A stretch of DNA of 64,000 bases, taken from positions 2,643 through 66,642 of the forward strand of contig CAYICB010000003.1 in the NCBI GenBank assembly GCA_964361825.1. Reading direction: 5' to 3'. Position 1 is the first letter of the stretch. Each line of letters starts with the position of its first letter. This document shows, piece by piece, positions 8,079 through 56,524 of this stretch. This DNA is from an uncultured Candidatus Saccharibacteria bacterium (GTDB taxonomy: Bacteria > Patescibacteriota > Minisyncoccia > Phycocordibacterales > JACOZG01). Both the position numbers and the translations under genes were made by a program. The notes under the pieces were generated by a model. The model saw only the letters and a program-made list of their open reading frames with translations. It did no database searches and was not told the DNA's origin.

Positions 8079-10196
8079 ATGTCTCTCGAACAAAAATCTA
8101 AGCTAATCCAAACCGCCAAAACCCTCTCTCTCGCCCTCATCCTCACCCTCGGCGCCCACCTCGCCATGGCCAACTGGACCCCACCACCCAATGCTCCTAC
8201 AACTTGTGATAGCAATCCCAGTTCGCCAAATTATGAGCCGGGTTGTGCGCTACCGATTAATGTTTCGGATATCCCACAAACCAAGACGGGGTTTTTACAG
8301 GTTGGTAAATTGATTTCTAATACCAATTTAGAATTTTTTGGAGAAATAATTCCCCCCACTCCTGGAACTGGGGTTGGTGGTGCCTGTGTCGAGGGTCAAA
8401 CAATTAAAAAGAACGACGATACTGGTGAATGGGAATGTACATATCTTGCTCCAGGACTTTGGGTATTTGATGGGATAGGGAGCATTAGACCTGCTGCGAC
8501 GGTTTTTGATGAAGTTCGAGCGGTTAAATTGCGTTTTGAGGGGGAACTTTTACCAGGCGTTCCTGGTACCCCCGCTTGTAATCCTAACCAAACTATTTTT
8601 AAATACGCCCCTAATGATTGGAGGTGCACCTCATTTGCTCCCGGCTATTGGATACTTGATGGAGGTGGACCGGGGCTTACCACAGATAGCGCAAGAGATG
8701 TTAAGATGCTAAAGAATATTCTTTTGCCGAATACTGATCCGGCCGGTACGGGGGGGGTGATAAAGTTCGGCGGACAGGATTTTATTCATAATAGGGGTTC
8801 AGACCAAAGTTTACTGATCAACACTTTTATTGGTGCTGGTGCTGGTGTTGGCACCGGAGATGGTGGTTTAGGAAATGTTGGTGTGGGGACGGAGGCTTTA
8901 ACGGCCGATAATATGACTGGTTTACGTAATATTGCGATTGGTTACGCGTCTCTAAGTAGTTTGACTGGGGGGAATAATAATATTGCCATAGGTTATTCGG
9001 CCGGTGGTAATCTTGGAGCCGGAGGAATTACTGCTAGCCACAACAACATCGCGATTGGTAAAGAGTCTTTGTATCTTGGTGATGGTGGTGATGAAAATGT
9101 TTTAGTCGGCAATGATACCATGAGGGAAAACACAAATACAACATCTGATTACAATGTTGGGATAGGGCAGGCAGCGCTTAGGGTTAATGTTGCGCCCGGG
9201 TTGGTGGCGGTTGGGAAAAATGCGCTAACCTCAAATACTTCAGGCGTGGCGAATGTTGCGGTTGGTTACGGTGCTTTGGCGGCCAATATTACCTCTGCAA
9301 GTAGTACTGCGGTTGGTTATCAGGCTCTAGCTAACAGTACGGCGGGTTTAAATACTGCTATTGGTAGTCAAGCTCTCCGTTCTAATACTGCGGGTACTAG
9401 TAATACTGCTATTGGTTGGCGCGCCCTGTATGAATTAGATGGTGAAGCTTTGGATGATAAAAATACTGTTATTGGGGCCGAGGCGAGCGATTATTTTGAG
9501 GGTGATAGCAACACAATCATCGGTTTTAATGCCGTCTCTAACCCACTTTCACGTCAAGCCAGAGGTAATGGTAATGTGGTGGTGGGAGCGGTGGCTGCGC
9601 AACAATTAGGAGACAATGCTTCCGCTGGCTCTACTGCTACTAGTTACGGTAACAATAATACTATTGTGGGTCACAATGCCGGCCCCACCCTTGTTTCTGG
9701 GGATAGTAACACATTGCTTGGTAATGGCGCCGATGTTACTGCGAGTGGTGTAATAGATGCGGTTGCTCTTGGACAAGGCTCACTTGCCAACAGTACTTCG
9801 ACGGCGGTTGGTCGCAATTCTAACGCTGCTGGTTTTAATTCCGTTGTGATTGGGGCAAATGCTTTTGCCACAGGAAACAACTCTGTGGTTATTGGCACGA
9901 ACGCGGCCTCCGGTGGAAGTGATGTGTTCATTCTTGGATCATCTGCTACCAAGGTCGGCATCAGAAACACTCTTCCTATTAGTCCTTTTCAGCTCGGTTC
10001 GCCTAGTAGTGCGGGTACACCCACCTACGGTCAAATGGATGTTGAGGGTGTTGTTGGAAATTTGAGCGACTGCAATGACATGACAGAAGCCGGGCGTTTT
10101 TATCTTAGTACTAGCACCATACCAAATCGTATGTATGTTTGTGCTATGGTCACGGCTTCTACATACAATTGGAGATATTTGACTCTTTCTCCGTAA
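8079..10196 (+). CDS. large secreted fibre/beta-helix repeat protein (NxAIGxxAL-type repeats, phage tail-fibre / YadA-head-like)
   Basis: signal peptide; same N-terminal W-PPP..TC..PGC..NVS..QTK module as the 6693 protein; >15 degenerate repeats N(T/I)A(I/V)G..AL..NT.G. Confidence 0.65.
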   Translation: MSLEQKSKLIQTAKTLSLALILTLGAHLAMANWTPPPNAPTTCDSNPSSPNYEPGCALPINVSDIPQTKTGFLQVGKLISNTNLEFFGEIIPPTPGTGVGGACVEGQTIKKNDDTGEWECTYLAPGLWVFDGIGSIRPAATVFDEVRAVKLRFEGELLPGVPGTPACNPNQTIFKYAPNDWRCTSFAPGYWILDGGGPGLTTDSARDVKMLKNILLPNTDPAGTGGVIKFGGQDFIHNRGSDQSLLINTFIGAGAGVGTGDGGLGNVGVGTEALTADNMTGLRNIAIGYASLSSLTGGNNNIAIGYSAGGNLGAGGITASHNNIAIGKESLYLGDGGDENVLVGNDTMRENTNTTSDYNVGIGQAALRVNVAPGLVAVGKNALTSNTSGVANVAVGYGALAANITSASSTAVGYQALANSTAGLNTAIGSQALRSNTAGTSNTAIGWRALYELDGEALDDKNTVIGAEASDYFEGDSNTIIGFNAVSNPLSRQARGNGNVVVGAVAAQQLGDNASAGSTATSYGNNNTIVGHNAGPTLVSGDSNTLLGNGADVTASGVIDAVALGQGSLANSTSTAVGRNSNAAGFNSVVIGANAFATGNNSVVIGTNAASGGSDVFILGSSATKVGIRNTLPISPFQLGSPSSAGTPTYGQMDVEGVVGNLSDCNDMTEAGRFYLSTSTIPNRMYVCAMVTASTYNWRYLTLSP

Positions 10197-10331: not shown

Positions 10332-11015
10332 GTGATGCAAAGAAAGGTGGCTTTTGCTCCAGACGAGTTTTATCACCTATATAATCGCGGGAATGACAAA
10401 AGGACGATTTTTCTTGATCAAAATGATCAACTGAGATTTACTCTACTCCTTTGTGTGTCCAACAAGAAACAGACCGTTCACTTGAGTGATCTCTCCAATT
10501 GGCAAGGAGAGTCCTTGACAGCAATTTGGGGCAAAGATTTTGGTGAAAGTTTGGTTGATATTGGCGCTTATTGCTTAATGCCAAACCATTTTCATCTTTT
10601 GGTGCGAGAAAAAACAGATAACGGTATTTCGTTGTTTACTAAAAAACTGCTTACGGGGTATTCGATGTATTTTAACAAGAAACATCAACGAACGGGTAAA
10701 TTATTTGAAGGACCTTTTCGTGCCGAGCGTGTTGCTGAAGATCGACACCTCAAATATTTGTTTGCTTATATTCATCTAAATCCCGTAAAAATTACTGATC
10801 CTAAAAATTGGGAGAGAAAACTTATTCCTGATCCAGAACAGGCAAGGAAATTTTTGAATACCTACCGCTTTTCAAGCCATTTGTATTATGCGGGTCAACC
10901 AAGACCAGAAGATGTAATTCTTAATCCGGTGGCTTTCTCAGAATATTTTCAAAATAAAAAAGAGTTTGGCGAGTTTATCAACGATTGGCTAACATTTGAA
11001 GCCACAGAAAATTGA
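10332..11015 (+). mobile_element. IS200/IS605-like Y1 HUH transposase homologue (RAYT-like)
   Basis: HUH motif in CLMPNHFHLLV, IS200-like fold, conserved Tyr-containing C-terminal region; 227 aa. Confidence 0.7.
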
Positions 11016-20764: not shown

Positions 20765-22436
20765 CGTAAATCAACTCTTGGCGCGGCGGGGGATAACTAC
20801 GGAAGCGGCGCGCGAGCGCTTTTTGCGACCAAGTTATGAGCGCGATCTCCACGACCCTTTTCTGTTCTCGCAGATGAACCAAGCGGTGACAAGAATTTTG
20901 CACGCGCTAGAGAAAAACGAGAAAATCACGATTTTTGCCGATTACGATGCCGATGGGGTGCCGGCGGCCGTGATTTTGAGTGAATTTTTTAAAAAAGTGG
21001 GTCATGCCAATTTCGACGTTTACATCCCCGACCGGCATGAAGAAGAATTTGGGCTCAAAGAATTTGCGGTGCAAAAAATTGCGGCGACTGATACCAAGCT
21101 CGTGATTACGGTCGATTGCGGCATCACCGATCTGCCCGGCGCGGCCTTACTCGCTTCGCATGCCATTGATCTTATTATTACCGACCACCATTTGCCACCA
21201 GAACAATTGCCGAAAGCAGTAGCGATTATTGATCCCAAGTTGCTCGGCGATGAGTATCCGGAGAAAATGTTGTGTGGCGCTGGGGTGGCTTTCAAACTCG
21301 TGCAGGCTTTGATCAAAATTTTGAGCCAGAGGACCGTCCTTAAGAACCCAAACCCAAGGACGGTCCTCGGGGACATCGCGCCCGGTTGGGAAAAGTGGTT
21401 GCTCGACCTAGTGGCGATTGCGACCGTTAGTGATATGGTGCCGCTCACGGGCGAGAATCGGGCTTTGGTTTACTTCGGGCTTAAGGTCTTGCGTCAGACG
21501 CCGCGACTCGGCTTGCGCGCCCTCGCTCGGGTTTTAAAACTTGATCCACAATATCTCACCGAGGATGATATTGCTTTTTCCATCGGGCCGCGGATTAATT
21601 CGGCGAGCCGAATGACGCATGGTCGCGAGGCATATGAGCTGCTTGCTACAACCGATCTTGCCCGAGCCGAGGCTTTGGCTAAGCATTTAGACTTGAAAAA
21701 TCGCGAACGGCGAGACGAGGTACAGAAAATTATTGATAGTGTGGGGGTGATGACCGAGAGGGCCTTGCCGCCGGTGCTGATCTTTGGCCATGAAGATTGG
21801 TCGCTTGGGGTTTTGGGTTTGGCGGCTTCGAAATTGGTAGAACAATTTTCTCGAACAGTTTTCATCTGGGGGAAAAATGGTAGCGGTTTGATAAAAGGTT
21901 CTTGTCGCGCCGCGCCCGGAGTGAATGTGGTGGCGCTGATGGGTGCCGCTGGGCCAAATATTTTTTCCAACTTCGGTGGCCATGCAGCTTCGGGCGGATT
22001 CTCGCTGGTGCCAGAAAAATTGCCTAAACTCGAAGCTGGTTTGTTGGCGGCTTATGAACTGGCACCGCGAGGCGAGGGGGCGGTGGCGAAGGAGCCCGAT
22101 CTTGACTTACTGCTCGATGAGATCACTGAAGATTTTTGCGCCAACTTGCATCAATTGGCGCCGTTTGGTTTAGGGAATCCGAAGCCGCTACTCTCTTTCC
22201 GCCACGCGCCATTGATGCAGAAGAAAACTTTTGGTTCAACTCATCTCGAATTACAATTTTCTCGCGAGTTCAGCCGACCAATTAAAGCGATTAAATTCTT
22301 CGCCGCAGAATTGGCCAAGAACGATGACTTGGTGCCGGGGGCGATAATTAATTTGCTCGCCAATTTAGAAAAGTCATATTTCCGCGGTCGACCCGAGCTC
22401 CGCTTGCGGATTGTCGATCTCACGCCGGTGCGTTAG
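20754..22436 (+). CDS. recJ: single-stranded-DNA-specific exonuclease RecJ
   Basis: DHH motifs (ADYDADGV, DHH), DHHA1 region. Confidence 0.9.
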   Translation: MTDIVNQLLARRGITTEAARERFLRPSYERDLHDPFLFSQMNQAVTRILHALEKNEKITIFADYDADGVPAAVILSEFFKKVGHANFDVYIPDRHEEEFGLKEFAVQKIAATDTKLVITVDCGITDLPGAALLASHAIDLIITDHHLPPEQLPKAVAIIDPKLLGDEYPEKMLCGAGVAFKLVQALIKILSQRTVLKNPNPRTVLGDIAPGWEKWLLDLVAIATVSDMVPLTGENRALVYFGLKVLRQTPRLGLRALARVLKLDPQYLTEDDIAFSIGPRINSASRMTHGREAYELLATTDLARAEALAKHLDLKNRERRDEVQKIIDSVGVMTERALPPVLIFGHEDWSLGVLGLAASKLVEQFSRTVFIWGKNGSGLIKGSCRAAPGVNVVALMGAAGPNIFSNFGGHAASGGFSLVPEKLPKLEAGLLAAYELAPRGEGAVAKEPDLDLLLDEITEDFCANLHQLAPFGLGNPKPLLSFRHAPLMQKKTFGSTHLELQFSREFSRPIKAIKFFAAELAKNDDLVPGAIINLLANLEKSYFRGRPELRLRIVDLTPVR

Positions 22437-22446
22437 GATTTAGTCT

Positions 22447-23406
22447 ATGATAAGAGATTTTGATCGGTGGAATAAACGGAAAAAAGAAATTCAAACAGCC
22501 CTTCCAAAAGGAAACTTTTTCTATAAAGAAGGTGAAATTTGGTGGTGTGGACTTGGTGTGAATCTTGGAGTGGAAACGGACGGGAAGCATGATAACTTCG
22601 AGCGACCGGTTTTAATTATTAAAGTTTTTAATCGAGAGATGGTTTGGGTTTTGCCAGTGACTAGTGTTTTTCACCAAGCGCCATTTTATTACAAGTTTGA
22701 TCATGGTGGAGAGGATCAGTGGGTGGTCTTATCTCAAATTAGAACAGTAAGTACAAAAAGATTGTTTAGGAAAATCAGGGTATTAGACGAAACTGATTTT
22801 GAAAAAATTAAAGTTTTAGTAATTGATTACCTTAAAAAACGAAACCCCGCCGTGAGGCGGGGAATCTCGGAGCCCGAAGGCAATAATGGTTCTAGTCTAA
22901 TCGATGAGAAAGAGCTTGTCAAGCCGGTTATCCCCAATCAGCCTAAAATTATTCTCTATACCGATGGTGGTTCGCGGGGGAATCCGGGTATCGCTGGGGC
23001 CGGAGCCGTGATTACTGATGAGGCGGGGAAAGTGATCAAAGAAGCGTCGAAGCCGCTTGGGATTACGACCAATAATGAGGCTGAGTATCAAGGGGTAATC
23101 TTGGGTCTCGAGACAACTAAGAAACATTTTGGCCCGTCTATGGGCCGGGCAAGTAAAGAGAAAATTCGCGATTTAGACATTACGCTCAAGCTCGATAGTG
23201 AACTGGTGGCCAAGCAATTGCGGGGCGAATATCAGATTAAAGAAGATAATCTTGGTAAACTCTTCCTCAAAATTTGGAATGCCCGCGTCGCCGACTTCCC
23301 TAAGCTCACCATTACCCATATCCCGCGCGAACAAAACTCCGCCGCCGATTGCCTCGCCAACGAAGCGATGGATGCCCAAGAAAAAGCCCCAAAACCCTTA
23401 TTTTAA
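22447..23406 (+). CDS. fusion protein: N-terminal MazF/PemK-fold domain + C-terminal RNase HI domain
   Basis: N-terminus GEIWWCGLGVNLGVETDG..RPVLII...LSQIRTVSTKRL matches MazF/PemK; C-terminus ILYTDGGSRGNPG..TNNEAEY..D is RNase H. Confidence 0.75.
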   Translation: MIRDFDRWNKRKKEIQTALPKGNFFYKEGEIWWCGLGVNLGVETDGKHDNFERPVLIIKVFNREMVWVLPVTSVFHQAPFYYKFDHGGEDQWVVLSQIRTVSTKRLFRKIRVLDETDFEKIKVLVIDYLKKRNPAVRRGISEPEGNNGSSLIDEKELVKPVIPNQPKIILYTDGGSRGNPGIAGAGAVITDEAGKVIKEASKPLGITTNNEAEYQGVILGLETTKKHFGPSMGRASKEKIRDLDITLKLDSELVAKQLRGEYQIKEDNLGKLFLKIWNARVADFPKLTITHIPREQNSAADCLANEAMDAQEKAPKPLF

Positions 23407-23678
23407 GCCATATTTTAGCCTACTTGACAAATGGCTGCCAACTATGCTAAGCTATTGGGTAGGAAGTGAAGACAGGACCTTGAAAACTGAATAGCGAAGT
23501 ATAGGAAAACAATCGTTGAAAAACGACAATTGTTATTCCTCTTCGTCTCACGGAGGGATACGGGATAAATAACCGTTAAGCCTCGGTGCGACAAGAGGGA
23601 TCGCAAACTTTCGCAATGGGCGAGAGGGTGATCCAAAAGTGAGTTTTTTCCTGAGAAGATCGGGAGAAGGAGATAGTT

Positions 23679-24188
23679 ATGTTTAGCGTTAGTGATCCTT
23701 GCGTCATCGGATTTTATCGGGGAATGGCCATCACCAGCCAGAGCGATCTGGCTGACCAGCCGGAGGGATCGTACGTAAGTACGGTCTACCCGGCTTGGGT
23801 GGCGGCGAGCATGTTGGAAAACATGCTCGGGGCCACTCAGGCGGACCTTCGCCTTGCGGCGAAGGTCAAGGCCGTGGCCCGGCCCCTCACGGAGGAGGAG
23901 CTCGAAGAAATCGGCAACAAGGTTGTTGCCCGACTGAACAACCTTCCCCACATGGAGGTGGGGGAGGTCGAAGACGTGGAGGAGGTCGTCAACATCTTTT
24001 TTGAGGTCGTTGACTTCCTCTCCGTTGCCGGAGAGAGGGAGGCGGTGACGGAGGTCGTACGATTGGCGATGGAGAACGCTCAAAAGGGGTTGTTCTCCCC
24101 AGCCGCCGTTCAGGCGGCGGCAATCGCCGAAAGGGCGACCGATCGGAGGATCTTGGGGATTGTGAAGGAGGTAATCAACAACAATTAG
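23679..24188 (+). CDS. hypothetical acidic protein (GC-rich islet gene A)
   Basis: strong SD GGAGAAGGAG 7 nt upstream; GC-rich codon usage; opposite-strand ORF judged to be a GC artefact. Confidence 0.5.
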   Translation: MFSVSDPCVIGFYRGMAITSQSDLADQPEGSYVSTVYPAWVAASMLENMLGATQADLRLAAKVKAVARPLTEEELEEIGNKVVARLNNLPHMEVGEVEDVEEVVNIFFEVVDFLSVAGEREAVTEVVRLAMENAQKGLFSPAAVQAAAIAERATDRRILGIVKEVINNN

Positions 24189-24203
24189 AAAAAACGAGTT
24201 TCT

Positions 24204-24236
24204 GGAGATTTATCGTTATCAAATCTCCACTTTGTT
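24204..24236 (+). terminator. hairpin GGAGATTT/AAATCTCC + T-rich tail
   Basis: perfect 8-bp stem, 9-nt loop, then ACTTTGTT. Confidence 0.45.
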
Positions 24237-24294
24237 CAGCTAATGACTTGGGTCGTTGGCTGATCGGGTTAACCCAAAGAAAGGTAGTGCGAAC

Positions 24295-24489
24295 ATGATG
24301 TCTGAATCGGATATGAATCGGATCATGAAGAGGGTCGAGGACGACATGAATTTTTTGGCTGGATTACCGGCCAGAAAGGAGGAAGAGGAACGGCTCGGGC
24401 GTCCCTGGGGGGAATGGACCATTCAGGAAATGATGGCATGGATGGACAGGGCTCTCCCCCTCTTTGCGGAAGCGCCACCGCAAAACTAA
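24295..24489 (+). CDS. small hypothetical protein (islet gene B, ~64 aa)
   Basis: ATG with AAAGAAAGG SD-like upstream; the ORF-track TTG start lies further 5'. Confidence 0.4.
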   Translation: MMSESDMNRIMKRVEDDMNFLAGLPARKEEEERLGRPWGEWTIQEMMAWMDRALPLFAEAPPQN

Positions 24490-24614
24490 ATGGCGCAAAA
24501 GGGAACGCGATTCGCTACGGCAATCACGTTTCCCTTCTGATTGAACCCGTAAACATGTGCTTGTGGGTTCAATGGAAGATTTTTTCCCGAGAAGATCGGG
24601 AGAAGGAGATAGTC

Positions 24615-24812
24615 ATGTTTATCGTCACAGTTCATGCGCAAGAAGGAAACGGGGACCATGTGCTTGGAACAAGCGGCGAATTCGCCACTTGTTCCTCGGA
24701 GGTGGCCGTGGCGGGGTTTGCCACGGCCGAGGCTGCCGTTGCCGCTGGAATGGCGGCGGTGAATCGCTTTGGGGCAACCCCCAAAGCGGTCGAGGTCCGC
24801 ACCTCGTTCTAA
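24615..24812 (+). CDS. small hypothetical protein (islet gene C, 65 aa)
   Basis: preceded by a ~40-nt leader near-identical to that of gene A, including GGAGAAGGAG. Confidence 0.5.
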   Translation: MFIVTVHAQEGNGDHVLGTSGEFATCSSEVAVAGFATAEAAVAAGMAAVNRFGATPKAVEVRTSF

Positions 24813-24824
24813 AGCGGTGGGCAC

Positions 24825-24858
24825 AGGAGAAGGCCCAAACAAACTTCTCCTACTTATT
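24825..24858 (+). terminator. hairpin AGGAGAAG/CTTCTCCT
   Basis: 8-bp stem, 11-nt loop after gene C. Confidence 0.4.
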
Positions 24859-24939
24859 GAGTTCATCACAATGGGTGGTGGATTCATGGGTAGAACATTA
24901 AAAATTTAATGGGGCTTCGGCCCCAGAAAGGAAGTGTTT

Positions 24940-25965
24940 ATGACACTTCAGTTTGCAATTCTCGACCCCCGCAACATTCCGACCGCCGCGGAGGCCAACG
25001 ACAAGGTGTTCGCAAATCCGGTTTACGGAATCGAAGTAACGGTGCCCGCGCTCGCAAAGCGCTGCATCGCGAATCTCGACCCGCAACACACCGGTGGCGA
25101 TGCCAATCGCGCGGCCATCGAAGACGCGCTGACGGCCGAGCTCCCGACCGAGGGTTCCACTCTCGCGACGGTTCGCGCCGATCTGGACGCCGTCGGCGCG
25201 ATGGTTGTTTTCGGCCTTAGATTGAGAGGCCGAATGATAGAACCCTCTGCATGGAGGGTTTGTTCAATTTGTGGGGCGGGGCTACAATCTTGCTTTTTTG
25301 TTTGCGGCCACTGCGGTTGGGTGGTTGGGAGCCACTCTAACGAAGCAGTGGCGACCAGATTTCAACAGGTGGCCGCTGCCGACAAGTTCGCGCGTGGTGG
25401 CTGGTTGGGCCCCAAACCGTTACCAACCAAGGAAAACCCTTGGCCGAGCGAGGGGGCAGCGGATTCGACTCAATCGCTCGCGGCAATCGCCGCGGCGGTT
25501 ACGGACTTCAAGGTCCCGATGGCCGATCGCGTCGCCACGATGGAGAAGTGGCTACTGACGGGTGAAGAGCCCAAGCAGTACCGCGACTCCGTCGAGAAGG
25601 AACGGCTCGACATGATCGCTGCCCTCGAAAGCGGAGCGATCAGGTGCGAGACGCGCTCCGGCGGCAAGATCGCGGTCGTCGAGAGCACGCACCGAGCGGC
25701 CACCAGCGTGGGGTACTCACTCGCGCCAGTCGTGGTTGCTCGCAATCCGGCCTTCAAGCTGGGCGGTGGTGAGGCTCACGCGAAGTACACGGTTTGTGCC
25801 TTCGAGGCAGGCAAGTTTGCGGACATCAAGTCCGCGCTTGCCGAGCTCGCGACGATCGAAGCTGGTTGGGGCGGTTCGCCCGTCATCGGTGGTAGCCCCC
25901 AGGGTGTGAGTTCCGCCTTGACGATCGATCAGGTCGTCGAGGTGGTTGAGAAGCATCTTAAGTAA
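24940..25965 (+). CDS. hypothetical 342-aa protein with central Cys cluster (CSICG..CGHCG)
   Basis: SD AGAAAGGAAG; GC-rich; no family recognised. Confidence 0.55.
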   Translation: MTLQFAILDPRNIPTAAEANDKVFANPVYGIEVTVPALAKRCIANLDPQHTGGDANRAAIEDALTAELPTEGSTLATVRADLDAVGAMVVFGLRLRGRMIEPSAWRVCSICGAGLQSCFFVCGHCGWVVGSHSNEAVATRFQQVAAADKFARGGWLGPKPLPTKENPWPSEGAADSTQSLAAIAAAVTDFKVPMADRVATMEKWLLTGEEPKQYRDSVEKERLDMIAALESGAIRCETRSGGKIAVVESTHRAATSVGYSLAPVVVARNPAFKLGGGEAHAKYTVCAFEAGKFADIKSALAELATIEAGWGGSPVIGGSPQGVSSALTIDQVVEVVEKHLK

Positions 25966-26002
25966 ATGAGATGCTGGCCACCGGAAACGGCCGAGGAAGA
26001 GT

Positions 26003-26036
26003 TTCCGAAAATTGGACAAACAAGCTCTGCTGAAAG
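26003..26036 (+). terminator. rho-independent terminator
   Basis: AGCTCTGC-TGAAAG-GCGGAGCT followed by TTTTTCTTTTTT. Confidence 0.65.
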
Positions 26037-26149
26037 GCGGAGCTTTTTCTTTTTTGCTGGACAAGATTTGGTAAGTGTGCGAGAGTGGGGGCGGAATAGT
26101 ATTGTCTTCGCGAGGCGGAGACTCGCTGGGTTATTGAAAGGAGTGAGCC

Positions 26150-26380
26150 ATGTTAGTGTTATCTAGGAAGCGGGATGAGAGCATTATGATCGGCGACGAT
26201 ATTGAGATTACCGTCGTTGACATCCGTGGCGACAAGGTGCGACTCGGGATCGCGGCACCGCGTCCGGTGCAGGTTCATCGCAAAGAGGTGTATGAAGATA
26301 TCCAACAAGGGCAAATGAAACTGCCCTATATGGATGATCGGCCAGCCAGCAAGAATGGAACAGCCGATTATCAGGTGTGA
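26150..26380 (+). CDS. csrA: carbon storage regulator CsrA
   Basis: [45 protein letters not shown] aligns across the whole CsrA fold. Confidence 0.9.
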
Positions 26381-26411
26381 TATTTGATCGTCGGCAGGAG
26401 GTCGGGGGAGG

Positions 26412-26451
26412 GGGAGCTATTCACCAAGCGGGTAATAGCTTCCCTTTTTTT
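26412..26451 (+). terminator. terminator hairpin GGGAGCTATT/AATAGCTTCCC + T7, overlapping speH stop
   Basis: ~10-bp stem then TTTTTTT. Confidence 0.5.
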
Positions 26452-26830
26452 ATTTGCGGAAGAAGTGAAGGGTTTTGGCCGATTTAGCCTCGAGGAAGTT
26501 TTGGCAAAACTTTTCGGCCGTTTCTGGTTCAAAGAATTTGCAGGAGAACACATCAATGAAAGCGCGACTTTTGCCCTCGTCGAAGTGCATGGTGACGGAA
26601 GATGTTTCAATAAACTGAAAGGCAGAATAACCCTCCAGTGGCCCCTCGGCAAAGCGTTGGATCATGGGCTCACCATAACGCTTCATTTTTATTTCTTCAC
26701 ACAAGCCCTCAATAAGGACCCGAATTTTTTCCGGATCTTTGATAAACTGGGGATGGCAGTCATAGAGGTCAATTGAGGCCACCATCCCCCAACACTGGTT
26801 CTCTTCGTACTCGGTTTGAAGTTTGTTCAC
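26450..26830 (-). CDS. speH: S-adenosylmethionine decarboxylase proenzyme (class 1b, SpeH-type)
   Basis: self-processing site region FIETSSVTMHF, IDVFSCK motif. Confidence 0.85.
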   Translation of the reverse strand: MNKLQTEYEENQCWGMVASIDLYDCHPQFIKDPEKIRVLIEGLCEEIKMKRYGEPMIQRFAEGPLEGYSAFQFIETSSVTMHFDEGKSRAFIDVFSCKFFEPETAEKFCQNFLEAKSAKTLHFFRK

Positions 26831-26888
26831 TCGCGTAAAATTAATTAGTTTCTAATAAAACGTTTTCATTATAAGTAAACTGTCAAGG

Positions 26889-28325
26889 ATGACAATAGTG
26901 CATAACTTATTTGCCTTCTTCTTGAGCTTTGGACTGGGGGTGGTGGCCCAGTTTTATTGGGCTTTGCCTTGGCCTTTTTTGGTAGGCCTCACCTTTTTGA
27001 TTTTGATCTTTTTATTCTATTATCATTTTTCTCGCGCGGTTCCATATCTTTTGGCGGCGATTATTCTCTTTGGTTTTACCTTGGGGGTCGGTCGTTTGTG
27101 GTTAACCGAGAGTTTGCGCGATCGGGAATTAGATCAGTATTTGGGCCAAGAGATCACCTTTCAGGGTCACCTCATTGCGCCGCCCGATGAGCGCGAGGTA
27201 TTTACGCGAGTGGTGGTGCGTCCGGAGGGGTGGCGGGTGGCGATTGCTTTTGACTTGCCGCGGGGCGATGAGTGGCACTATGGCGATTTGGTGCAGGTCA
27301 CTGGTTTACTCGCACCCCGAGCTCGCGGGGCGAGTTTTACGCTTGATTATGAACTCAAATCAGCCGAGGTAGAGATTTTGCCTAGCCAAAATTTTAGCTT
27401 CCGGCGGAGCCTGTTTTGGCTTAAAGACCAATTTCTCGAAAACCTTAAACAACTTTATCCGGAGCCGGCGGCTGGTCTGGTGGCCGGCCTTCTCTTTGGC
27501 GAGAAGCATGCTTTGGGCGAAAAGTGGTCCGAGTATTTCCGTGCCGCTGGCCTTTCTCACATTGTGGTGCTCTCGGGTTATAACCTCACCTTGGTGGCCA
27601 CGCTAATTTTGAGCTTTTTTGCTTGGTGTCGAGTGTCTTTGCGCCCGCGTTTAATTCTGGGAGCCATAGGAATTATCGCTTTTACCTTGATGACTGGCGC
27701 TTCGGCCGCTACCGTGCGCGCGGCAATGATGGCTTTGGTGGCTCTGCTCGCTCGAGCGGCGGGTCGAGAATATGCGGCGGGCACGGCCCTGTTTCTGGCT
27801 GGTTTCTTGATGTTGCTGTATGAGCCGCGGTTATTGGTTGGTGACCTTGGCTTCCAATTATCCTTTTTGGCTACTTTTGCTTTAATTTATTTTTCTCCCG
27901 TGATGGAAAGAGTTTTTGGTTTTTGGCCCAAAACGCGACTAGCTCTCTGGCGCGAAGTAGCCATTACCACCCTCGCGGTACAAATCTTTCTGGTGCCTTG
28001 GCTTTTATATAAATTTGGTACTGTTTCTCTTCTTGGTTTACCGGCTAATATTTTGGTTTTACCGCTGGTGCCACCAGTGATGCTCTTGGGTTTTGGCGCG
28101 AGCTTGCTCGGATCAATTAGTTCGCTTTTAGCTTGGCCGGTGATGGCTATTTCTTATCCGATTATTGCCTTAATGCTTTGGCTCGCCAAGCTTTTTGCTA
28201 CGCCAACCATGGCCACCTTTGAGGTCACAAACTTTTCTGTTTCCACCGTGATAATTTGTTATTTGTTTTACTTCGGAATCATTCTGTGGCATAATCGGAA
28301 AGGATGGTTGCTGGTGGGCCAGTAA
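26889..28325 (+). CDS. comEC: ComEC/Rec2 family competence membrane protein (channel domain only)
   Basis: DUF4131-like N-terminus and competence domain (GLSHIVVLSGYNLTL), polytopic. Confidence 0.8.
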   Translation: MTIVHNLFAFFLSFGLGVVAQFYWALPWPFLVGLTFLILIFLFYYHFSRAVPYLLAAIILFGFTLGVGRLWLTESLRDRELDQYLGQEITFQGHLIAPPDEREVFTRVVVRPEGWRVAIAFDLPRGDEWHYGDLVQVTGLLAPRARGASFTLDYELKSAEVEILPSQNFSFRRSLFWLKDQFLENLKQLYPEPAAGLVAGLLFGEKHALGEKWSEYFRAAGLSHIVVLSGYNLTLVATLILSFFAWCRVSLRPRLILGAIGIIAFTLMTGASAATVRAAMMALVALLARAAGREYAAGTALFLAGFLMLLYEPRLLVGDLGFQLSFLATFALIYFSPVMERVFGFWPKTRLALWREVAITTLAVQIFLVPWLLYKFGTVSLLGLPANILVLPLVPPVMLLGFGASLLGSISSLLAWPVMAISYPIIALMLWLAKLFATPTMATFEVTNFSVSTVIICYLFYFGIILWHNRKGWLLVGQ

Positions 28326-28487
28326 CCAATTGGGCCATAGCGAAGGAGTGCTCGGCGTGTTTCATCTCGATTCTTCTTATTTTGGCGTGATGGGTTGTAT
28401 TGCGGTGGCGATTGCGTTGGCAGTGATTGTGGCGGGGCGTGTTTTCGACAAGAGGCGAGATTAGTGCTGATCGGGCGGGGTAGCTTG

Positions 28488-28530
28488 TTGCCAGTTTGGT
28501 TGAAAAACCGCTGGCAACTTTTTTGTTTTC
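28488..28530 (+). terminator. rho-independent terminator
   Basis: TTGCCAG...CTGGCAA stem + CTTTTTTGTTTT. Confidence 0.55.
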
Positions 28531-28548
28531 TCGCGATAATTTGGCTTA

Positions 28549-29415
28549 ATGATCAAATTGCTTCGCACGCACTACCTTTGGTTTTTGACCCTCTTTTTTC
28601 TGTTGGCAAATCTTTTGGTTTGGCCCAAGGTTTTGGCCGAGCGCCAAGCTTTACTCAAAGTCGCCTTTCTTGATATTGGTCAAGGCGATGCGATTTATAT
28701 TGAGGCACCCAATGGCAATCAAATTTTGCTTGATGGTGGCCGGGGGCGGCAAGTGCTCGCGGCGCTTGGCGAAGTGATGCCTTTCTCTGATCGTTCGCTT
28801 GATTTAGTGATTGCTTCGCATCCCGACGCTGACCATATTGGTGGTTTGGTGGATGTGTTTGATCGTTATGAAATTGGTGGTTTTATGGAGTCGGGAGTAG
28901 CGGCCGAGACCGAGGTTTACGGTTTTTTACAAGAGCGAGTGAAGGCAGAGGGAGCTAAACCAGTTTTGGCGCGGCGAGGAACCATTATTACTCTCGACGC
29001 CGCGCGCCAAATTTATCTCACGGTGCTTTTCCCCGATCGCGACACCACTGGCATGGAGACCAATGAGGCTTCCATTATCGCCAAACTTACCTACGGCGAG
29101 TCTGACTTTTTGCTCACTGGTGATTCACCGATGAAAATTGAAGAATATCTGACCGGTAGTGACGCCGAGAGTCTTGCGAGTGAGGTGCTCAAGCTGGGGC
29201 ATCATGGTTCCAAGACTTCGAGTAGCGCCGAATTTCTCGCCGCCGTTAAGCCGGCGTATGCCATTATTTCTGTGGGTAAAAATAGCTATGGTCACCCGAG
29301 CCCAGAGGTGCTTGATCGTTTAGAAAAGGCTCAAATTCCCTCTCTCCGCACCGATGAAGAAGGGACCATTATTTTTGAAACCGATGGCAAAAAAATTACT
29401 TGGCGCTCGATTTGA
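28549..29415 (+). CDS. membrane-anchored MBL-fold hydrolase (ComEC C-terminal beta-lactamase-like domain as separate gene)
   Basis: N-terminal TM; MBL motif HPDADHIGG, DIGQGDA. Confidence 0.75.
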   Translation: MIKLLRTHYLWFLTLFFLLANLLVWPKVLAERQALLKVAFLDIGQGDAIYIEAPNGNQILLDGGRGRQVLAALGEVMPFSDRSLDLVIASHPDADHIGGLVDVFDRYEIGGFMESGVAAETEVYGFLQERVKAEGAKPVLARRGTIITLDAARQIYLTVLFPDRDTTGMETNEASIIAKLTYGESDFLLTGDSPMKIEEYLTGSDAESLASEVLKLGHHGSKTSSSAEFLAAVKPAYAIISVGKNSYGHPSPEVLDRLEKAQIPSLRTDEEGTIIFETDGKKITWRSI

Positions 29416-29599
29416 GTTGGCGATTTTGCTTGAGGCAGGAGGTGCAGACTTTGATTCTGCCGCCACCGGGTAAAGCGGCCCATTGGAGATTGGGATATTT
29501 GCGCTTCATGCCGACGGGGTTAAACTTGGTCGCGCGGACGCGATTAGAATATTTCCCGGCCATGATCGTGCCTTTATTGCAGGTTGGGCAGACTTTCAT
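29396..29599 (-). CDS. rpmB: 50S ribosomal protein L28
   Basis: Cys4 zinc ribbon (CPTC...CTSC) and SNRVRATKFNP..NLQ core motif. Confidence 0.75.
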   Translation of the reverse strand: MKVCPTCNKGTIMAGKYSNRVRATKFNPVGMKRKYPNLQWAALPGGGRIKVCTSCLKQNRQLKSSAK

Positions 29600-29630
29600 T
29601 TCGGAGGTATGCTAACATGCTGGTTTAATT

Positions 29631-30230
29631 ATGACAATTACCTTTGTTTTCAGTTTAGCGATTCTTATTATGTCGGTGGTGATTCACGAGGTGGCCCATG
29701 GTTATGCCGCCGAGGCGCTCGGCGACTCCACCGCGCGCTTGCAAGGGCGACTCACGCTTAATCCGCTGGCGCATCTCGATTGGTTTGGTTCGGTAATTTT
29801 ACCGCTGATGCTCTCGCTTTTACCGGGCGGACTCGTTTTTGGCTGGGCCAAGCCGGTGCCGTATAATCCGTATAATCTCCGCGGGGGCAAATGGGGTCCG
29901 GCGTTGGTAGCCGCGGCTGGGCCAGCATCTAATTTATTCTTAATGGCGTTTTTTGCCCTCTTTTTGCGCCTTTTTGCTTGGTCGGGGCCAGTAATTTATT
30001 TGGCGAGTTCCATTGTGCTCGTTAATCTCGCCCTCGCTATTTTCAACTTAATTCCTGTTCCGCCACTCGATGGTTCTAAAATTCTTTTTGCTATCCTGCC
30101 ATACCGTTTGCGCTCCCTCGAGAACTTCCTCACCACCTATTCCCTTTTCTTCGTTTTCCTTCTCCTTTTCGTCCTTTGGGATTTTATCTCACCGCTCGTC
30201 TTCACCATCTTCACCTGGCTGGTGGGGTAG
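29631..30230 (+). CDS. site-2 protease family zinc metalloprotease (M50-like)
   Basis: HEVAH motif within TM helix, polytopic. Confidence 0.75.
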   Translation: MTITFVFSLAILIMSVVIHEVAHGYAAEALGDSTARLQGRLTLNPLAHLDWFGSVILPLMLSLLPGGLVFGWAKPVPYNPYNLRGGKWGPALVAAAGPASNLFLMAFFALFLRLFAWSGPVIYLASSIVLVNLALAIFNLIPVPPLDGSKILFAILPYRLRSLENFLTTYSLFFVFLLLFVLWDFISPLVFTIFTWLVG

Positions 30231-30280
30231 CGACTTGCGTCTTTGGGGGAAACATATTAAAGTGGTAGCTCACAAGTTTT

Positions 30281-30700
30281 ATGCCGACAGTTAATCAATT
30301 AATTAAGAACCCTCGCCGGGCCGTGCGCGTGAAGAGCCGCACGGTTGGCTTGGCGAATGGCTTCAACACCAAGAAGAGCCGCCCCATTTTTTACCCCTCA
30401 CCATTTAAGCGGGGAGTTTGTGTGCAGGTTAAAACGACGACACCGAAGAAGCCAAACTCCGCGGTGCGGAAAATCGCTCGGGTGCGCCTCTCTAATGGGA
30501 TGGAGGTCACCGCCTATATTCCCGGTATTGGTCACAATCTCCAAGAACACTCGGTGGTAATGATTCGTGGCGGTCGGGTGAAGGACCTTCCCGGCGTGCG
30601 TTATCATATTGTGCGTGGTCGATATGATTCATCCGGCGTAGATAAGCGGATGAAGGGCCGCTCGCTCTATGGAGCCAAGAGACCAAAGAAAGGCAAATAA
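30281..30700 (+). CDS. rpsL: 30S ribosomal protein S12
   Basis: PTVNQLI..PKKPNSA motif. Confidence 0.95.
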
Positions 30701-30706
30701 TTAAAC

Positions 30707-31201
30707 ATGAGACGCAAAGTTAAAAATCGAATTAAACTCCAACCAGATTTGGCCTACCAATCGCTCAAAATTGCGAAACTAATTAACTATGTGATGGATT
30801 CGGGTAAAAAGAATACCGCGCGTAAGGTGGTGTATGGCGCCCTTGACCAGATTAAAGAAAAAACCAAACAAGAGGCCTTAGAAGTTTTTGAAGAGGCGGT
30901 TAAGAATGCTGGGCCAGCCATGGAGCTCCGTTCGCGCCGGGTGGGTGGTGCTAATTATCAGATTCCTCACGAGGTGAGCCCAGAGCGCCGCCTCACGCTT
31001 GCCTTGCGGTGGATGGTAGAAGCTGCTTCGAGCAAAAAGGGGCGACCGATGGCCCAGAAATTGGCCGAAGAGATTGTGGCGGCGGCAAAAAATGAGGGTG
31101 AGGCGGTAAAAAAGCGCGAGATGATTCACCGGATGGCCGAGGCCAACCGCGCCTTTGCTCACTTTGCTCGGACACAAAATAAGCCTAAGGTTGTTGCTTA
31201 A
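30707..31201 (+). CDS. rpsG: 30S ribosomal protein S7
   Basis: S7 family sequence. Confidence 0.95.
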
Positions 31202-53018: not shown

Positions 53019-53640
53019 TATGACAGACAAATCAAATGTGGACACATCACTAAGGTCGTCTTGGTTGGGCACAACAAGATCGATCGTGGTAGCATTGAAT
53101 AACTTCAAAAAAATGACTGTCGCTTTATCACTCATCCCTCCCGAACGGATCGAGAAAATAATTTTGGTAATCCGCAACCAACGAGTGATTATCGATACTG
53201 ATCTGGCCGCCCTGTACGGGGTAACCACCAAGCGACTCAATGAACAGGCCAAGCGTAACCGTGATCGTTTTCCCGCCGATTTCATGTTTCATTTGACCGT
53301 TAATGAGTGGGCCAACTTGAAGTCGCAATTTGCGACCTCAAGTGCTGACCATGGTGGTCGTCGTACTCTTCCGTTTGTGTTTACCGAACATGGCGCTATC
53401 ATGGCTGCCAATATTCTCAATAGCCCCGTGGCGGTCAAAGCGAGCATTCAGGTTGTGCGCGCCTTCGTCCGTCTACGGCGAATGCTAATTGATAACGCCG
53501 AGCTCGCGAAGAAGCTGTTTTCCCTCGAAGCGAAGTACGATGACCAGTTCAAGGTCGTGTTCCGGGCGATCCGTGAGCTGATGACGCCACCACCGGAGCC
53601 GGATAAGCCGAAAATTGGGTTTCGGGTGGATAATAAATAG
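53011..53640 (+). CDS. ORF6N-domain protein (phage/mobile-element-associated, KilA-N-related); alternative start at 53113
   Basis: VIIDTDLAALYGVTTKRLNEQAKRNRDRFPADFMFHLT..ATSS..GGRR matches ORF6N domain. Confidence 0.7.
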   Translation: MIFMTDKSNVDTSLRSSWLGTTRSIVVALNNFKKMTVALSLIPPERIEKIILVIRNQRVIIDTDLAALYGVTTKRLNEQAKRNRDRFPADFMFHLTVNEWANLKSQFATSSADHGGRRTLPFVFTEHGAIMAANILNSPVAVKASIQVVRAFVRLRRMLIDNAELAKKLFSLEAKYDDQFKVVFRAIRELMTPPPEPDKPKIGFRVDNK

Positions 53641-53660
53641 TTGGCCATTTGGGAAAATGC

Positions 53661-53751
53661 AAAGGAGGAAAGGTGATGACCCGGGCGAAGCGAGTTAGGA
53701 AGAAAAAAAGCCGTTTGTTGGTTAACCCCCAACCTACGGCTTTTTGATTTT
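53661..53751 (+). repeat. direct repeat, right copy (SD + 23-codon Lys-rich ORF + terminator hairpin)
   Basis: same 53-nt core plus weaker upstream similarity; stem AAGCCGT/ACGGCTT then TTTTTGATTTTTT. Confidence 0.85.
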
Positions 53752-53815
53752 TTGTGGCAAGGCTTAGCCTTGTTGAGATGACTTGAATTGCCCGATTTAA
53801 TCAATGTGATCAATA

Positions 53816-55435
53816 TTAATCCCCAATGTATTCTACCGAATTACTAAACAGATCGAACGCGGATTCAATCTGCCCTCTCGAATTAGTTGTATACCCGCCA
53901 ACACTAATTGAAACGATCTTATTTGGAGTAGCAAAATCAAATGAGCGAACTAGCCAATCGCCCTTACTGGTTGTGAGTGTGTTCCAATATGAAACAAAGG
54001 GTACTTCTGTGTCTAGATTTATCCCACTCTCATCCTCAATAAACTCTATGTGCTCACTCGATTTTTGAACGATTTTTGTTAAATCATCGAGTGTTGCATG
54101 CTTGCTTTCTGGTAGATTAATAAAACTAATTAGATAGCGAAAACCGTCATTACTATACACATCATAAAAAACAAAGTTTTCATTCTCGGTACGCACGGGT
54201 TTATCAGGAAAACCAACGCTCCACCCCTCTTTTAAACTATAAGTTTTCCACCCCACAGACCCATGGTTCTCTGTTTGGTCTAAATCTCCTTCGGTAGAGA
54301 TGTGTTTAATTTCTCCAAAGTTATTTCCAAGAATGTTTTCCATTTCTGACAATGCCTCCTCCTGTGCCCTGACCGTTACGTCGGCAACAATAATTACTCG
54401 CTTTTCGTTACCCCTCTGGTCGGTGAATGAAAGGTATGGCAAACCTACCGGTTCGTCACTGAAAAATTTTGATAAGTAGTCATTGAGTTCACGGGAATTA
54501 TTACAGGAATCAGATTTAACAACGAAATTTGATTTGTAATTCTCTATGTCTAGTTCCCTCACAATATTGCACTGTTCTAGGTTTTCTAAACGAGTTATTA
54601 CCCCAAGTTTGTCTGACAAAATAACAACGCTATAGTAGTAACTACTCTGATTAATCCGTGCAACAATACCCAAATATGCAATATAACCAGAAACGCCAAG
54701 TAATAGTATCAGTATAATAGTGAGTAGGGTCGTGTTTTTCGGCCTTTCGGGTTTTACAGTCAGTTGTTCTTCCTTAGAAACATTGTGTGGCAAAGTATAT
54801 TCCTCATTTTTAAATTTATAAAACAGATAGATTGACCCAGCAACGGCCAAAACTAGTGTGGCTAGACCGAACTCAACATTCGTAATATCTGTCACATGTA
54901 GCGAAATGTTAAATAAACTGTGAACAAGTACTGCCAAAATAAATCCTTTGAAAAATAATTTAGTTCTCTCTTTCTCGCCTCTAAACCATAATAATCCCCA
55001 GTAGAAACCAAAAATACCTGAGGTTGCCAAATGCATAAGTGTTGTGGCAATCGCGCGAAGGCCAAATGTATTCAATACATCTGTCCAAATAAATATAGAA
55101 TTGAACCCCAAACTATGGTTCATTTGATAGGACTCATAGAAGTATTTGAAATTCTCAACAAAAGCAAAAGCTGCTGCCGCTACCACCATATAAATGATCC
55201 CGTCAACAATTTGAGTAAAATACTTTTTATTCCTTTGAACGACCGTTTTAGCAATCCAGTACTTAACAAATTCCTCGATCGGAGCAACAAGAAAAAACGT
55301 TGAGATAACGCTCAGCCAAATTAATTTCGCAGTAGTGTCTGGTGAACTAAATAAATACTGCTCCCCAATACTTTCTGCAATATATGTCACTGGGAGTGCC
55401 AGAATTACGCCGAGAAGAAAGATCTTCAAAAGCAA
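53816..55435 (-). CDS. PrsW-family intramembrane protease fused to a large extracytoplasmic domain
   Basis: PrsW motifs EEFVKY, FAFVEN, H..G in the TM region; AT-rich codon usage unlike neighbours. Confidence 0.65.
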   Translation of the reverse strand: MLLKIFLLGVILALPVTYIAESIGEQYLFSSPDTTAKLIWLSVISTFFLVAPIEEFVKYWIAKTVVQRNKKYFTQIVDGIIYMVVAAAAFAFVENFKYFYESYQMNHSLGFNSIFIWTDVLNTFGLRAIATTLMHLATSGIFGFYWGLLWFRGEKERTKLFFKGFILAVLVHSLFNISLHVTDITNVEFGLATLVLAVAGSIYLFYKFKNEEYTLPHNVSKEEQLTVKPERPKNTTLLTIILILLLGVSGYIAYLGIVARINQSSYYYSVVILSDKLGVITRLENLEQCNIVRELDIENYKSNFVVKSDSCNNSRELNDYLSKFFSDEPVGLPYLSFTDQRGNEKRVIIVADVTVRAQEEALSEMENILGNNFGEIKHISTEGDLDQTENHGSVGWKTYSLKEGWSVGFPDKPVRTENENFVFYDVYSNDGFRYLISFINLPESKHATLDDLTKIVQKSSEHIEFIEDESGINLDTEVPFVSYWNTLTTSKGDWLVRSFDFATPNKIVSISVGGYTTNSRGQIESAFDLFSNSVEYIGD

Positions 55436-55551
55436 TTTGCGCGGTTCAGGTTCTCGGTAGTCCTTTCTTAGAAATATAATGAGCCAAAATAAACTGGGCA
55501 GGAGAGCTAAAATTAGAAGAAAAAAATTGTCATTGTTATATTATAATCCTA

Positions 55552-56145: not shown

Positions 56146-56524
56146 TGGAGATGCCGGGAATCGAACCCGGGTGCAGAAAGAGATCTCAAGTAGGTCTACA
56201 AGCGTAGTTGGTTTGGTGTTGTCGGGAGTGGCATAGAAAGCCAACAAAAACGCACACCCCGTAGCTCTAGGTTTTCGTCTCTCGCCTCGAGCGCGGGCGG
56301 GAGCTTATTCCGAATTTATGACACCACTTTGATCTTATCGGAAGTCAGACCAAGTGATGTCGCTTAGGCTAAAGCGTAAGCGAAAGGAAGAGGATATGGC
56401 GAAGCCACACCTTCTCCCTCGTTAGATAAGTTGGCACTTATCAGTGTGCCGCGGTTTTACGAGTGGGCGGCAACTCGGCTTGCATAGCAAGAGAGTGATC
56501 CTTCTGTCGAAGCCAATCATCCCC
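56146..56524 (-). ncRNA. ssrA: tmRNA (SsrA)
   Basis: 5' GGGGATGATTGGCTTCGACAG; 3' T-arm CCCGGGTTCGATTCCCGG + acceptor CATCTCC with G3:U70 (Ala identity); internal frame ends ..PFAYALA-TAA; immediately downstream of smpB. Confidence 0.88.

Follow-up and report, generated by a model that had tools for sequence, protein, structure and literature searches.

A probable hammerhead-type punctuated gene array, with a divergent DHH-fold anchor protein, in a Saccharibacteria contig

The early genes of phage T7 are separated by intercistronic RNase III sites, and a cut at such a site gives the upstream mRNA a 3' hairpin that protects it. In bacterial prophages, clusters of hammerhead ribozymes flank individual genes or small blocks of genes in co-directional arrays, with a ribozyme in each intergenic space and variable, mostly hypothetical cargo (Perreault et al. 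2011, PMC3088659). These clustered ribozymes cleave in vitro and in vivo, and a role in the processing of polycistronic RNA was proposed (PMC3088659). Unrelated ribozyme classes share the same gene neighbourhoods. This implies that cleavage matters, rather than any particular motif; reasoning from the shared slot led to discovery of the ribozymes named twister-sister, pistol and hatchet (PMC6765202). Here, we describe an islet of four genes, ORF1 to ORF4, at positions 23407-26060 of a 64,000-nucleotide stretch from an uncultured Candidatus Saccharibacteria bacterium (contig CAYICB010000003.1). The whole stretch is referred to as the window. We think it probable that the islet is a hammerhead-type punctuated array of co-directional genes, of a kind found across Patescibacteria, in which the family of ORF4, with its predicted DHH fold, provides the anchor.

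Spacer motif M1 and the hammerheads of sister arrays

The three spacers of the islet share one layout. A hairpin, H0, follows the stop codon, the M1 hairpin comes next, and a 5' hairpin with a Shine-Dalgarno sequence (SD) completes the spacer (fold z-scores of -3.6 to -4.5 relative to shuffled sequence). M1 consists of a 5-bp stem, P1, an internal loop (5' UAU; 3' UU or UA, then GAG) and a second stem, P2, of at least 6 bp with a variable hairpin on top. Searches with blastn and nhmmer showed that window positions 24197-24287 are homologous to sequences in L070, L024, L031, L043, L003 and L055, and to seven copies in L036 (related loci and contigs are denoted by L numbers). M1 copy 1 is homologous to L070 807-897 and to L036 7212-7298, whilst copy 3 is homologous to L055 4792-4853. 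In an alignment of 15 hand-collected copies, 91% of cells were paired, versus 26-43% in slid controls, and compensatory changes occurred in 7 of 11 pairs. The corresponding values for 22 model-aligned copies from 10 sources, being the window and nine related contigs, were 92%, 30-46% and 8 of 11.

A covariance model of M1, named R2, identified exactly three copies in the 64 kb (E 5e-10 to 5e-8). The next-best match in the window, with an E-value of 0.6, was the reverse strand of an M1 copy, which scored 13.6 bits compared to 51.6 bits for the forward strand. Since G·U pairs are frequent, the sense strand is taken as the strand that folds; all 22 copies found at E≤0.01 are on this strand. M1 had no match in 489 kb of hammerhead-bearing viral contigs. 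Scans of the islet, and of M1-rich loci, identified no Rfam family for M1, and the only Rfam matches in the islet were due to chance (CsrC inside csrA, and eiav_FSE). We conclude, from comparison of sequences, that M1 is a previously undescribed covarying RNA motif standing in the place of a ribozyme.

In sister arrays, the slot of M1 is filled by hammerheads. Rfam model RF00008 matched type III hammerheads in spacers of L012, L014 and L019, with scores of 46-48 bits, just short of the gathering score (48.5). The full invariant core, CUGAUGA...GAAA, is present. A further model, R1, was built from 19 sister-locus hammerheads and detected 37 hammerheads in 598 kb of ORF4 loci (E 1e-10 to 1e-21), each of which shares its strand with the ORF4 homologue. 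In the sister hammerheads, 98% of cells were paired and 12 of 14 pairs showed compensatory change. With this core and three covarying stems, they are predicted to be genuine type III hammerheads. They occur either 160-178 nt ahead of the start of ORF4 or 46-89 nt past its stop, and each is preceded by a stop-proximal hairpin like H0. In L008 and L010, hammerheads bracket the ORF4 homologue on both sides, and in L003, L024 and L055 hammerheads and M1 are found in the same locus.

The sister loci fit the published prophage pattern exactly, including the polycistronic processing presumed there. However, the host here is a member of the Patescibacteria, prophage genes are absent, and the window spacers carry M1. 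There is also a conserved anchor gene, of the ORF4 family, and the coding sequences are GC-rich. As in ribozyme-associated neighbourhoods, with their non-cleaving RNA motifs (Weinberg et al. 2015, reviewed in PMC6765202), an unrelated structured motif occupies the hammerhead slot of homologous contexts, but M1 matches none of the Rfam models of the motifs described there. A literature search returned no paper linking hammerheads with Patescibacteria.

Two other identities for M1 were rejected. Briefly, M1, or the ORF1-ORF2 spacer that contains it, could be a decayed hammerhead. Against this, the CUGA positions form covarying base pairs (CAG/CUG to GAG/CUC), both GAAA and stem II are lacking, and R1 gives no match. 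M1 does share the 5' context of hammerheads (…CUCCACUUUAUU-CAG…). The Drum motif, considered for a supposed association with hammerheads, is described as linked to terminators and associated with proteins, and no match was obtained with Rfam.

The array starts with a candidate promoter and a leader hairpin, L1 (Table 1). L1 shares nucleotide homology with the leader immediately upstream of the ORF4 homologue in L024 (5895-5975) and was also found by nhmmer in L043 (4156-4240), L003 (7634-7716) and L004 (7214-7300). RNAalifold predicts 26 pairs, 10 of which show compensatory change. The nearly invariant 5' strand, UGUUAUUCCUCUUCG, forms an anti-SD/SD-like pairing with CAAGAGGGAUCGCA. L1 may be a regulatory element. 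A TrmB-type regulator, divergently oriented, lies upstream of L1 in L003 and L004.

An earlier, sequence-only reading of this DNA gave each gene its own hairpin terminator and placed the last of these at 26003. The closing terminator is real, but its stem and T-run lie further downstream (Table 1), and it is the single intergenic terminator on the plus strand. The spacer hairpins are not terminator-like: no spacer hairpin with a T-run was found in the terminator scan, and the remaining plus-strand matches are inside ORF4. The four plus-strand ORFs of that reading were confirmed, as were the long antisense ORFs that accompany them and are expected of GC-rich DNA. We consider it rather likely that the islet, which extends from ~23.41-23.50 kb to 26.06 kb, was inserted and forms a transcription unit complete in itself.

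Table 1. Coordinates of islet features in the window
Feature	Position	Strand	Remarks
Candidate promoter of array	23424..23453	+	TTGACA, 18 nt, TAAGCT; read by eye, below consensus-scan threshold
Array-initial leader hairpin L1	23530..23606	+	5' strand UGUUAUUCCUCUUCG pairs with 3' strand CAAGAGGGAUCGCA
46-nt direct repeat copy 1	23644..23689	+	5' hairpin CCUGAGAAGAUCGGG, SD AGAAGGAGAU, ORF1 start ATGTTTA
ORF1, 169 aa, acidic, orphan	23679..24188	+	
H0 after ORF1 stop	24204..24228	+	spacer centroid fold z -3.6
M1 copy 1	24221..24279	+	covariance model R2 51.6 bits, E 4.5e-10
ORF2, 64 aa, orphan, weaker SD	24295..24489	+	
H0 after ORF2 stop	24501..24533	+	spacer fold z -4.5
M1 copy 2	24527..24587	+	covariance model R2 43.0 bits, E 5e-8
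46-nt direct repeat copy 2 (5' hairpin, SD, ORF3 start)	24580..24625	+	93% identical to copy 1
ORF3, 65 aa, orphan	24615..24812	+	
H0 after ORF3 stop	24826..24850	+	spacer fold z -4.3
M1 copy 3	24843..24902	+	covariance model R2 51.5 bits, E 4.6e-10
5' hairpin GGGGCUUCGGCCCC ahead of ORF4 SD (AGGAAG)	24911..24924	+	comparable hairpins precede SD of many homologues
ORF4, 341 aa, anchor gene, divergent DHH/DHHA1-fold protein (predicted)	24940..25965	+	
Optional Zn-ribbon insert in ORF4	25231..25344	+	residues ~98-135, CSICG...CFFVCGHCG
Intrinsic terminator closing array	26022..26055	+	10-bp stem (26022-26045) then TTTCTTTTTT

The ORF4 family, array cargo and coding composition

The sequence-only reading recognised no family for any of the four proteins. 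This holds for curated libraries; no model in Pfam, PHROG, PADLOC or NCBIfam matches an islet protein. It does not hold for ORF4, which has homologues in 679 clusters at 50% identity according to an exhaustive search. A word-indexed search found at least 444 relatives, with 57-74% identity among the 119 non-identical matches listed, and a search of genome contigs with the single ORF4 protein gave 3 loci. A minority of homologues bear an organism name, and all of these are Patescibacteria. Homologues are embedded in Patescibacteria contigs of up to 1 Mb. No match to ORF4 was found in GenBank phages, and IMG/VR contained only four distant relatives (36-40% identity).

Family members are typically 306 aa long and most have no Zn-ribbon insert. 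The window copy of this otherwise highly conserved protein has an insert of 35 aa, modelled with a predicted local distance difference test score (pLDDT) below 60. Similar CxxC...CxxC inserts occur sporadically at the same hotspot, in family members P0046, P0059 and P0120, and P0046 and P0120 have a further insertion hotspot that contains CxxC pairs. The segment enclosing the window insert, 25216-25345, has a GC content of 0.515, compared to 0.63 for the rest of ORF4, and holds hairpins caught by the terminator scan. The closest homologue on a long contig (L010 4757-5676; ~80% identity) has, in the frame used, an apparent internal stop at codon 191, which might reflect a frameshift, a pseudogene or an error in the coordinates.

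The structure of ORF4 was predicted using AlphaFold2 and an alignment of 103 sequences (pLDDT 90.6). The model has the two-domain arrangement of a DHH plus DHHA1 fold. Foldseek comparison with the PDB identified PggH, RecJ2, PAP phosphatase and NrnA, whilst comparison with BFVD identified phage DHH hydrolases. At the sequence level, there is no match between ORF4 and the DHH/DHHA1 phosphoesterases (NrnA, PggH, GdpP/Pde2, PAP phosphatase, TM1595 and RecJ). Consistent with this, window ORF4 does not match Pfam DHH (PF01368) or DHHA1 (PF02272) at E≤0.1, a search of PDB sequences with the family profile (hmmsearch) found nothing relevant, and hhalign of the family with the RecJ of the window gave a probability of 0.4%. 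Nearly invariant in the family are D47-P-Q-H50, D81-L-D83, R140, D148, R197, K282 and GWGGSPxIGGSPQG. ORF4 has DPQH, DLD and GWGGSPxIGGSPQG where the enzymes have the DHH tripeptide and GGGH; catalytic motifs I-IV of the enzymes are DxD, D, DHH and D. Further differences are an N-domain sheet of just four strands and the optional Zn-ribbon inserts of some members. On the predicted model, we class ORF4 as a DHH/DHHA1-fold protein but stop short of assigning it to the enzyme family. Its probable role is that of a metal-dependent phosphoesterase with RNA ends or small nucleotides as substrates.

ORF1-3 make up the cargo of the array and are specific to this lineage. Amongst 5.8 billion proteins, ORF1 had no homologue but itself, and tblastn and blastp found no match to ORF1-3 across 94 related loci. 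ORF1 has coding-like periodicity (GC1/GC2/GC3 of 0.64/0.38/0.75, the GC contents of the three codon positions), and its single-sequence AlphaFold2 model was uninformative (pLDDT 44). In L097, the gene call lengthens ORF3 to 124 aa; on the window, this extension would cross H0 and M1. Cargo varies between otherwise similar arrays, such as L012 and L014, and is likewise anonymous elsewhere with the exception of DEAH/HA2 helicases. Genes for these DEAH/HA2-type RNA helicases are GC-rich, occur in hammerhead/M1 arrays at several loci (L024 8552-10918; L026 9552-12509) and stand alone among the array cargo in having a function that can be recognised. A second GC-rich gene is found upstream of the ORF4 homologue in L012 (255-1403), L014 (1199-2098) and L019 (4236-5336). 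These upstream genes belong to two unrelated families, have GC3 values of 0.75-0.88, and share a ~90-nt structured leader with the ORF4 of their locus. Hence, leaders, and not punctuation alone, are reused within an array.

The islet is a compositional outlier, as the sequence-only reading recognised. Mean GC content of the whole 64 kb is 0.480 (sd 0.027, in 2.4-kb segments) and the maximum, 0.573, is reached by the 2.4-kb segment that starts at 23701; the islet has a z-score of 3.46. The tetranucleotide distance for 23407-26060 (z=3.3) marks one of just two outliers in the 64 kb. GC3 is 0.75, 0.65, 0.64 and 0.70 for ORF1, ORF2, ORF3 and ORF4, respectively, versus 0.503 ± 0.065 for 63 non-overlapping window ORFs. 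Such deviant composition is a hallmark of genomic islands, but the deviation is limited to the ORFs. These have a GC content of 0.53-0.62, and peaks of 0.63-0.645 are confined to the 3' half of ORF4. An abrupt rise in GC at 23406, and foreign composition of the entire segment, were both proposed earlier. Neither could be upheld, because the first 272 nt, the leader (23407-23678), is only 44% GC, the three intergenic spacers are a host-like 41-48% GC, and high GC is a trait of the gene clade. Hence, the compositional observation is real, though imprecisely described. The GC richness belongs to the coding sequences of a gene clade and not to the DNA segment as a whole.

The clade was compared at 48 loci where flanking DNA was sufficient. 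The GC content of the ORF4 homologue was higher than that of its own flanks by 13.5 points on average, and by 26 at most; the excess was above 5 points at 39 of the 48 loci. GC3 of ORF4 homologues reached 0.915, next to flanks of 36-54% GC, and neighbouring array genes are often GC-rich too. Distant members of the family (L046, L047, L050, L063, L065 and L066; 41-55% identity) have a host-like GC content of ~40%. Some hosts, L062 and L031, are GC-rich themselves. Nucleotide homology to the window spans just 24940-25965 and ends exactly at the ORF4 borders. At four-fold sites, identity of window ORF4 to GC-rich relatives is 0.41-0.63, whilst 0.29-0.35 is expected at saturation. These sites are therefore unsaturated, as would be expected if the gene had spread within the phylum or if synonymous sites were under selection. 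Codon bias linked to expression is an unlikely cause; GC3 in a presumed ribosomal-protein block (short ORFs, 34-47 kb) is 0.42-0.56. The ribosomal-protein genes of L006 are not in the window.

Insertion site and competing explanations

The site of the islet is empty in a relative. Contig L095, from the same aquifer, encodes a MazF/RNaseH fusion 54% identical to that of the window. The gene order is recJ, MazF/RNaseH, csrA and AdoMet_dc (AdoMet decarboxylase, minus strand), and there is no islet; 117 nt separate the RNase H stop from the csrA start. Nucleotide alignments connect recJ, the RNase H gene and speD between L095 and the window. In L095, the promoter and leader of csrA align to window positions 26060-26143, directly past the islet terminator. 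Because synteny is kept without the islet, and the csrA leader aligns at this position, the islet is an indel, and L095 supplies the empty site in a syntenic relative that is typical of genomic islands. In other genomes, ORF4 homologues occupy unrelated neighbourhoods. Hence, insertion is the simpler reading, and the suggestion that the module was acquired survives.

The sequence-only reading pointed out that csrA lies immediately downstream. The family is paired with csrA at no other locus, and adjacency marks the landing site only. Since both csrA and the MazF/RNaseH neighbour are in the empty-site contig, and neither is at the other ORF4 loci, a functional link to either was rejected. The upstream neighbour (22447-23406) is a PemK/MazF-like toxin domain fused to RNase H (RVT_3), and the fusion is kept in L095. 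Short, weakly similar sequences occur at the islet edges, CTTGACAAATGG at 23423-23434 and CTGGACAAGATTTGG at 26057-26071. Both resemble the -35 region of the L095 csrA promoter, TTGACAAGCTATG. The similarity might reflect duplication of a target or capture of a promoter, with evidence too weak to call.

Several other origins for the islet were weighed. In favour of an assembly chimera, in which a fragment of a GC-rich organism was joined to a Patescibacteria contig, other assemblies from this population are interrupted towards the left of the islet: in window coordinates, L096 stops at 23337, and the first positions of L097, L099 and L098 are 23846, 24532 and 24640. However, the latter three independent assemblies match 23846-30965 (L097), 24532-28316 (L099) and 24640-29346 (L098) at 99.9-100% identity, from a partial ORF1 through ORF4 and csrA to comEC. 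The right junction is therefore not chimeric. The internal repeats (the 46-nt repeat and three copies of M1), along with a coverage of 4-5x, suffice to account for the breaks, and ORF4 homologues lie well within long Patescibacteria contigs. We regard the chance of a chimera as negligible. The sequence-only reading preferred a recent transfer from a high-GC phylum, phage or plasmid, with the composition of the donor kept. An outlier in GC, GC3 and tetranucleotides, at a site that is empty in a relative, is what such a transfer would leave, and the unsaturated four-fold sites of ORF4 are compatible with transfer among lineages. Even so, we find this origin very hard to credit. The leader and spacers have host-like GC (0.41-0.48), the excess recurs at 39 of 48 loci whatever the GC content of the flanks (36-54%), and nucleotide homology stops at the ORF4 borders. 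All named homologues are Patescibacteria, GenBank phages are blank and IMG/VR holds but four distant relatives. With GC-rich hosts such as L062 and L031, a donor pool is more likely to lie inside the phylum.

The islet might also be what is left of a phage of Patescibacteria, or of another mobile element, or a moron block delivered by one, which would be compatible with a punctuated array; clustered hammerheads are typical of prophages. The published prophage clusters (PMC3088659), the inserted state of the array, its orphan cargo and the few distant IMG/VR homologues of ORF4 all point this way. Conversely, the islet and tested array genes contain no phage hallmark, integrase or PHROG match. 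Neither a tRNA nor an attachment site adjoins the islet; the mobility gene, flanking repeat or tRNA of a canonical island was not found. M1 is absent from the hammerhead-bearing viral contigs, and the arrays are short and sit among housekeeping genes. A phage or mobile block is thus unlikely in our view, though it deserves to be kept in mind. Integron cassette arrays, and clusters of attC sites lacking integrases (CALINs), also consist of short, co-directional orphan ORFs split by imperfect palindromes that are conserved more in structure than in sequence. Cargo differing between similar arrays (L012 and L014), and the two stems, unpaired spacer and variable loop of M1, superficially like the R and L boxes of attC, might suggest that M1 is an attC-like site of DNA recombination. 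However, the attC consensus (RYYYAAC...GTTRRRY) is absent from the M1 alignment, the sense strand of M1 is the one that folds, with G·U pairs in number, and scores far above the reverse, whereas attC sites fold on the bottom strand, and no integrase was found among the genes examined. Furthermore, the hammerhead, an element acting at the RNA level, fills the same slot in sister arrays. We therefore judge an integron-like origin to be highly improbable.

The punctuated array is our preferred explanation, and a number of observations count against it. No hammerhead was found in the window: the best R1 match with filters off has an E-value of 2.3 and lies outside the islet, and Rfam detected none in 22400-27000 at E≤1. 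The link between the window and ribozyme processing is therefore one of contextual homology. Few nucleotides of M1 are invariant, and the motif may be too simple for catalysis. As regards ORF4, the fold matches also include Cdc45 and the C-Ala domain of AlaRS, so the protein could be a non-catalytic binder of similar type. Neither the DHH tripeptide nor GGGH is conserved in the family alignment; one of 103 members gave a marginal DHH match (E 0.048) and none matched DHHA1. ORF1-3 have no homologues and their products are putative. With respect to insertion, L095 is a single, diverged relative and a deletion in its lineage is possible. The left junction, 23338-23845, is present in the window's own contig alone, and Pfam and PHROG scans identified no integrase or transposase in or adjoining the islet.

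Additional unusual regions were noted in the window. The second compositional outlier, 53200-55500, has a GC content of ~0.37 and a tetranucleotide z-score of 3.8. It includes a minus-strand ORF of 539 aa with a PrsW-family protease domain (53816-55435), ~0.7 kb from the tmRNA gene (56146-56524), a classic site of island integration. A low-GC ORF (0.377) at 10332-11015 has an IS200-like Y1 transposase domain. Upstream of this, 8079-10196 encodes 705 aa, with a GC3 of 0.37 and a match to YadA-head repeats.

A model for processing of the array

By the logic published for hammerhead clusters, the islet is most likely one transcription unit cut at each M1. The unit would run from promoter and leader hairpin through ORF1, ORF2, ORF3 and ORF4 to one intrinsic terminator. 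It would be transcribed as a single RNA and cut at every spacer. In sister arrays, the hammerheads would cut themselves. M1 might be cut by a host endonuclease specific for double strands, in the manner of T7 RNase III sites, or by itself. Each cut would free a monocistronic mRNA, with H0 protecting the 3' end and a hairpin protecting the 5' end. The T7 sites, intercistronic hairpins of upper stem, internal loop and lower stem, are the closest mechanistic analogue of M1. However, they have no sequence relation to M1, and with stems of 5 bp and at least 6 bp M1 falls short of classical RNase III substrates.

A more far-reaching proposal is that M1 is a new RNA cleavage element, either a minimal self-cleaving motif or the dedicated substrate of some nuclease, which replaces hammerheads so that units bounded by ribozymes or M1 are modules at the RNA level. 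Units might then be excised with 5'-OH and 2',3'-cyclic phosphate ends, to be acted on by the DHH-like ORF4 enzyme or a ligase. ORF4, or the ligase, would perhaps circularise or mobilise the units. If true, this would explain both the hammerheads on either side of single genes in L008 and L010 and the unrelated genomic sites of the units. We consider such RNA modules speculative and quite unlikely.

As a punctuated array, the islet bears on a wider problem. The clustering of bacterial self-cleaving ribozymes around particular, mostly uncharacterised, genes is still unexplained (PMC6765202). The arrays offer a compact and widespread system with which to approach this question. They combine an anchor protein with a predicted DHH-like fold and no family model, hammerheads and M1 as interchangeable elements, GC enrichment of coding sequence only, and a natural empty site. 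M1 itself is a concrete candidate for an RNA-processing element or ribozyme. For the Patescibacteria, in which gene regulation is barely known, the arrays would add a post-transcriptional layer.

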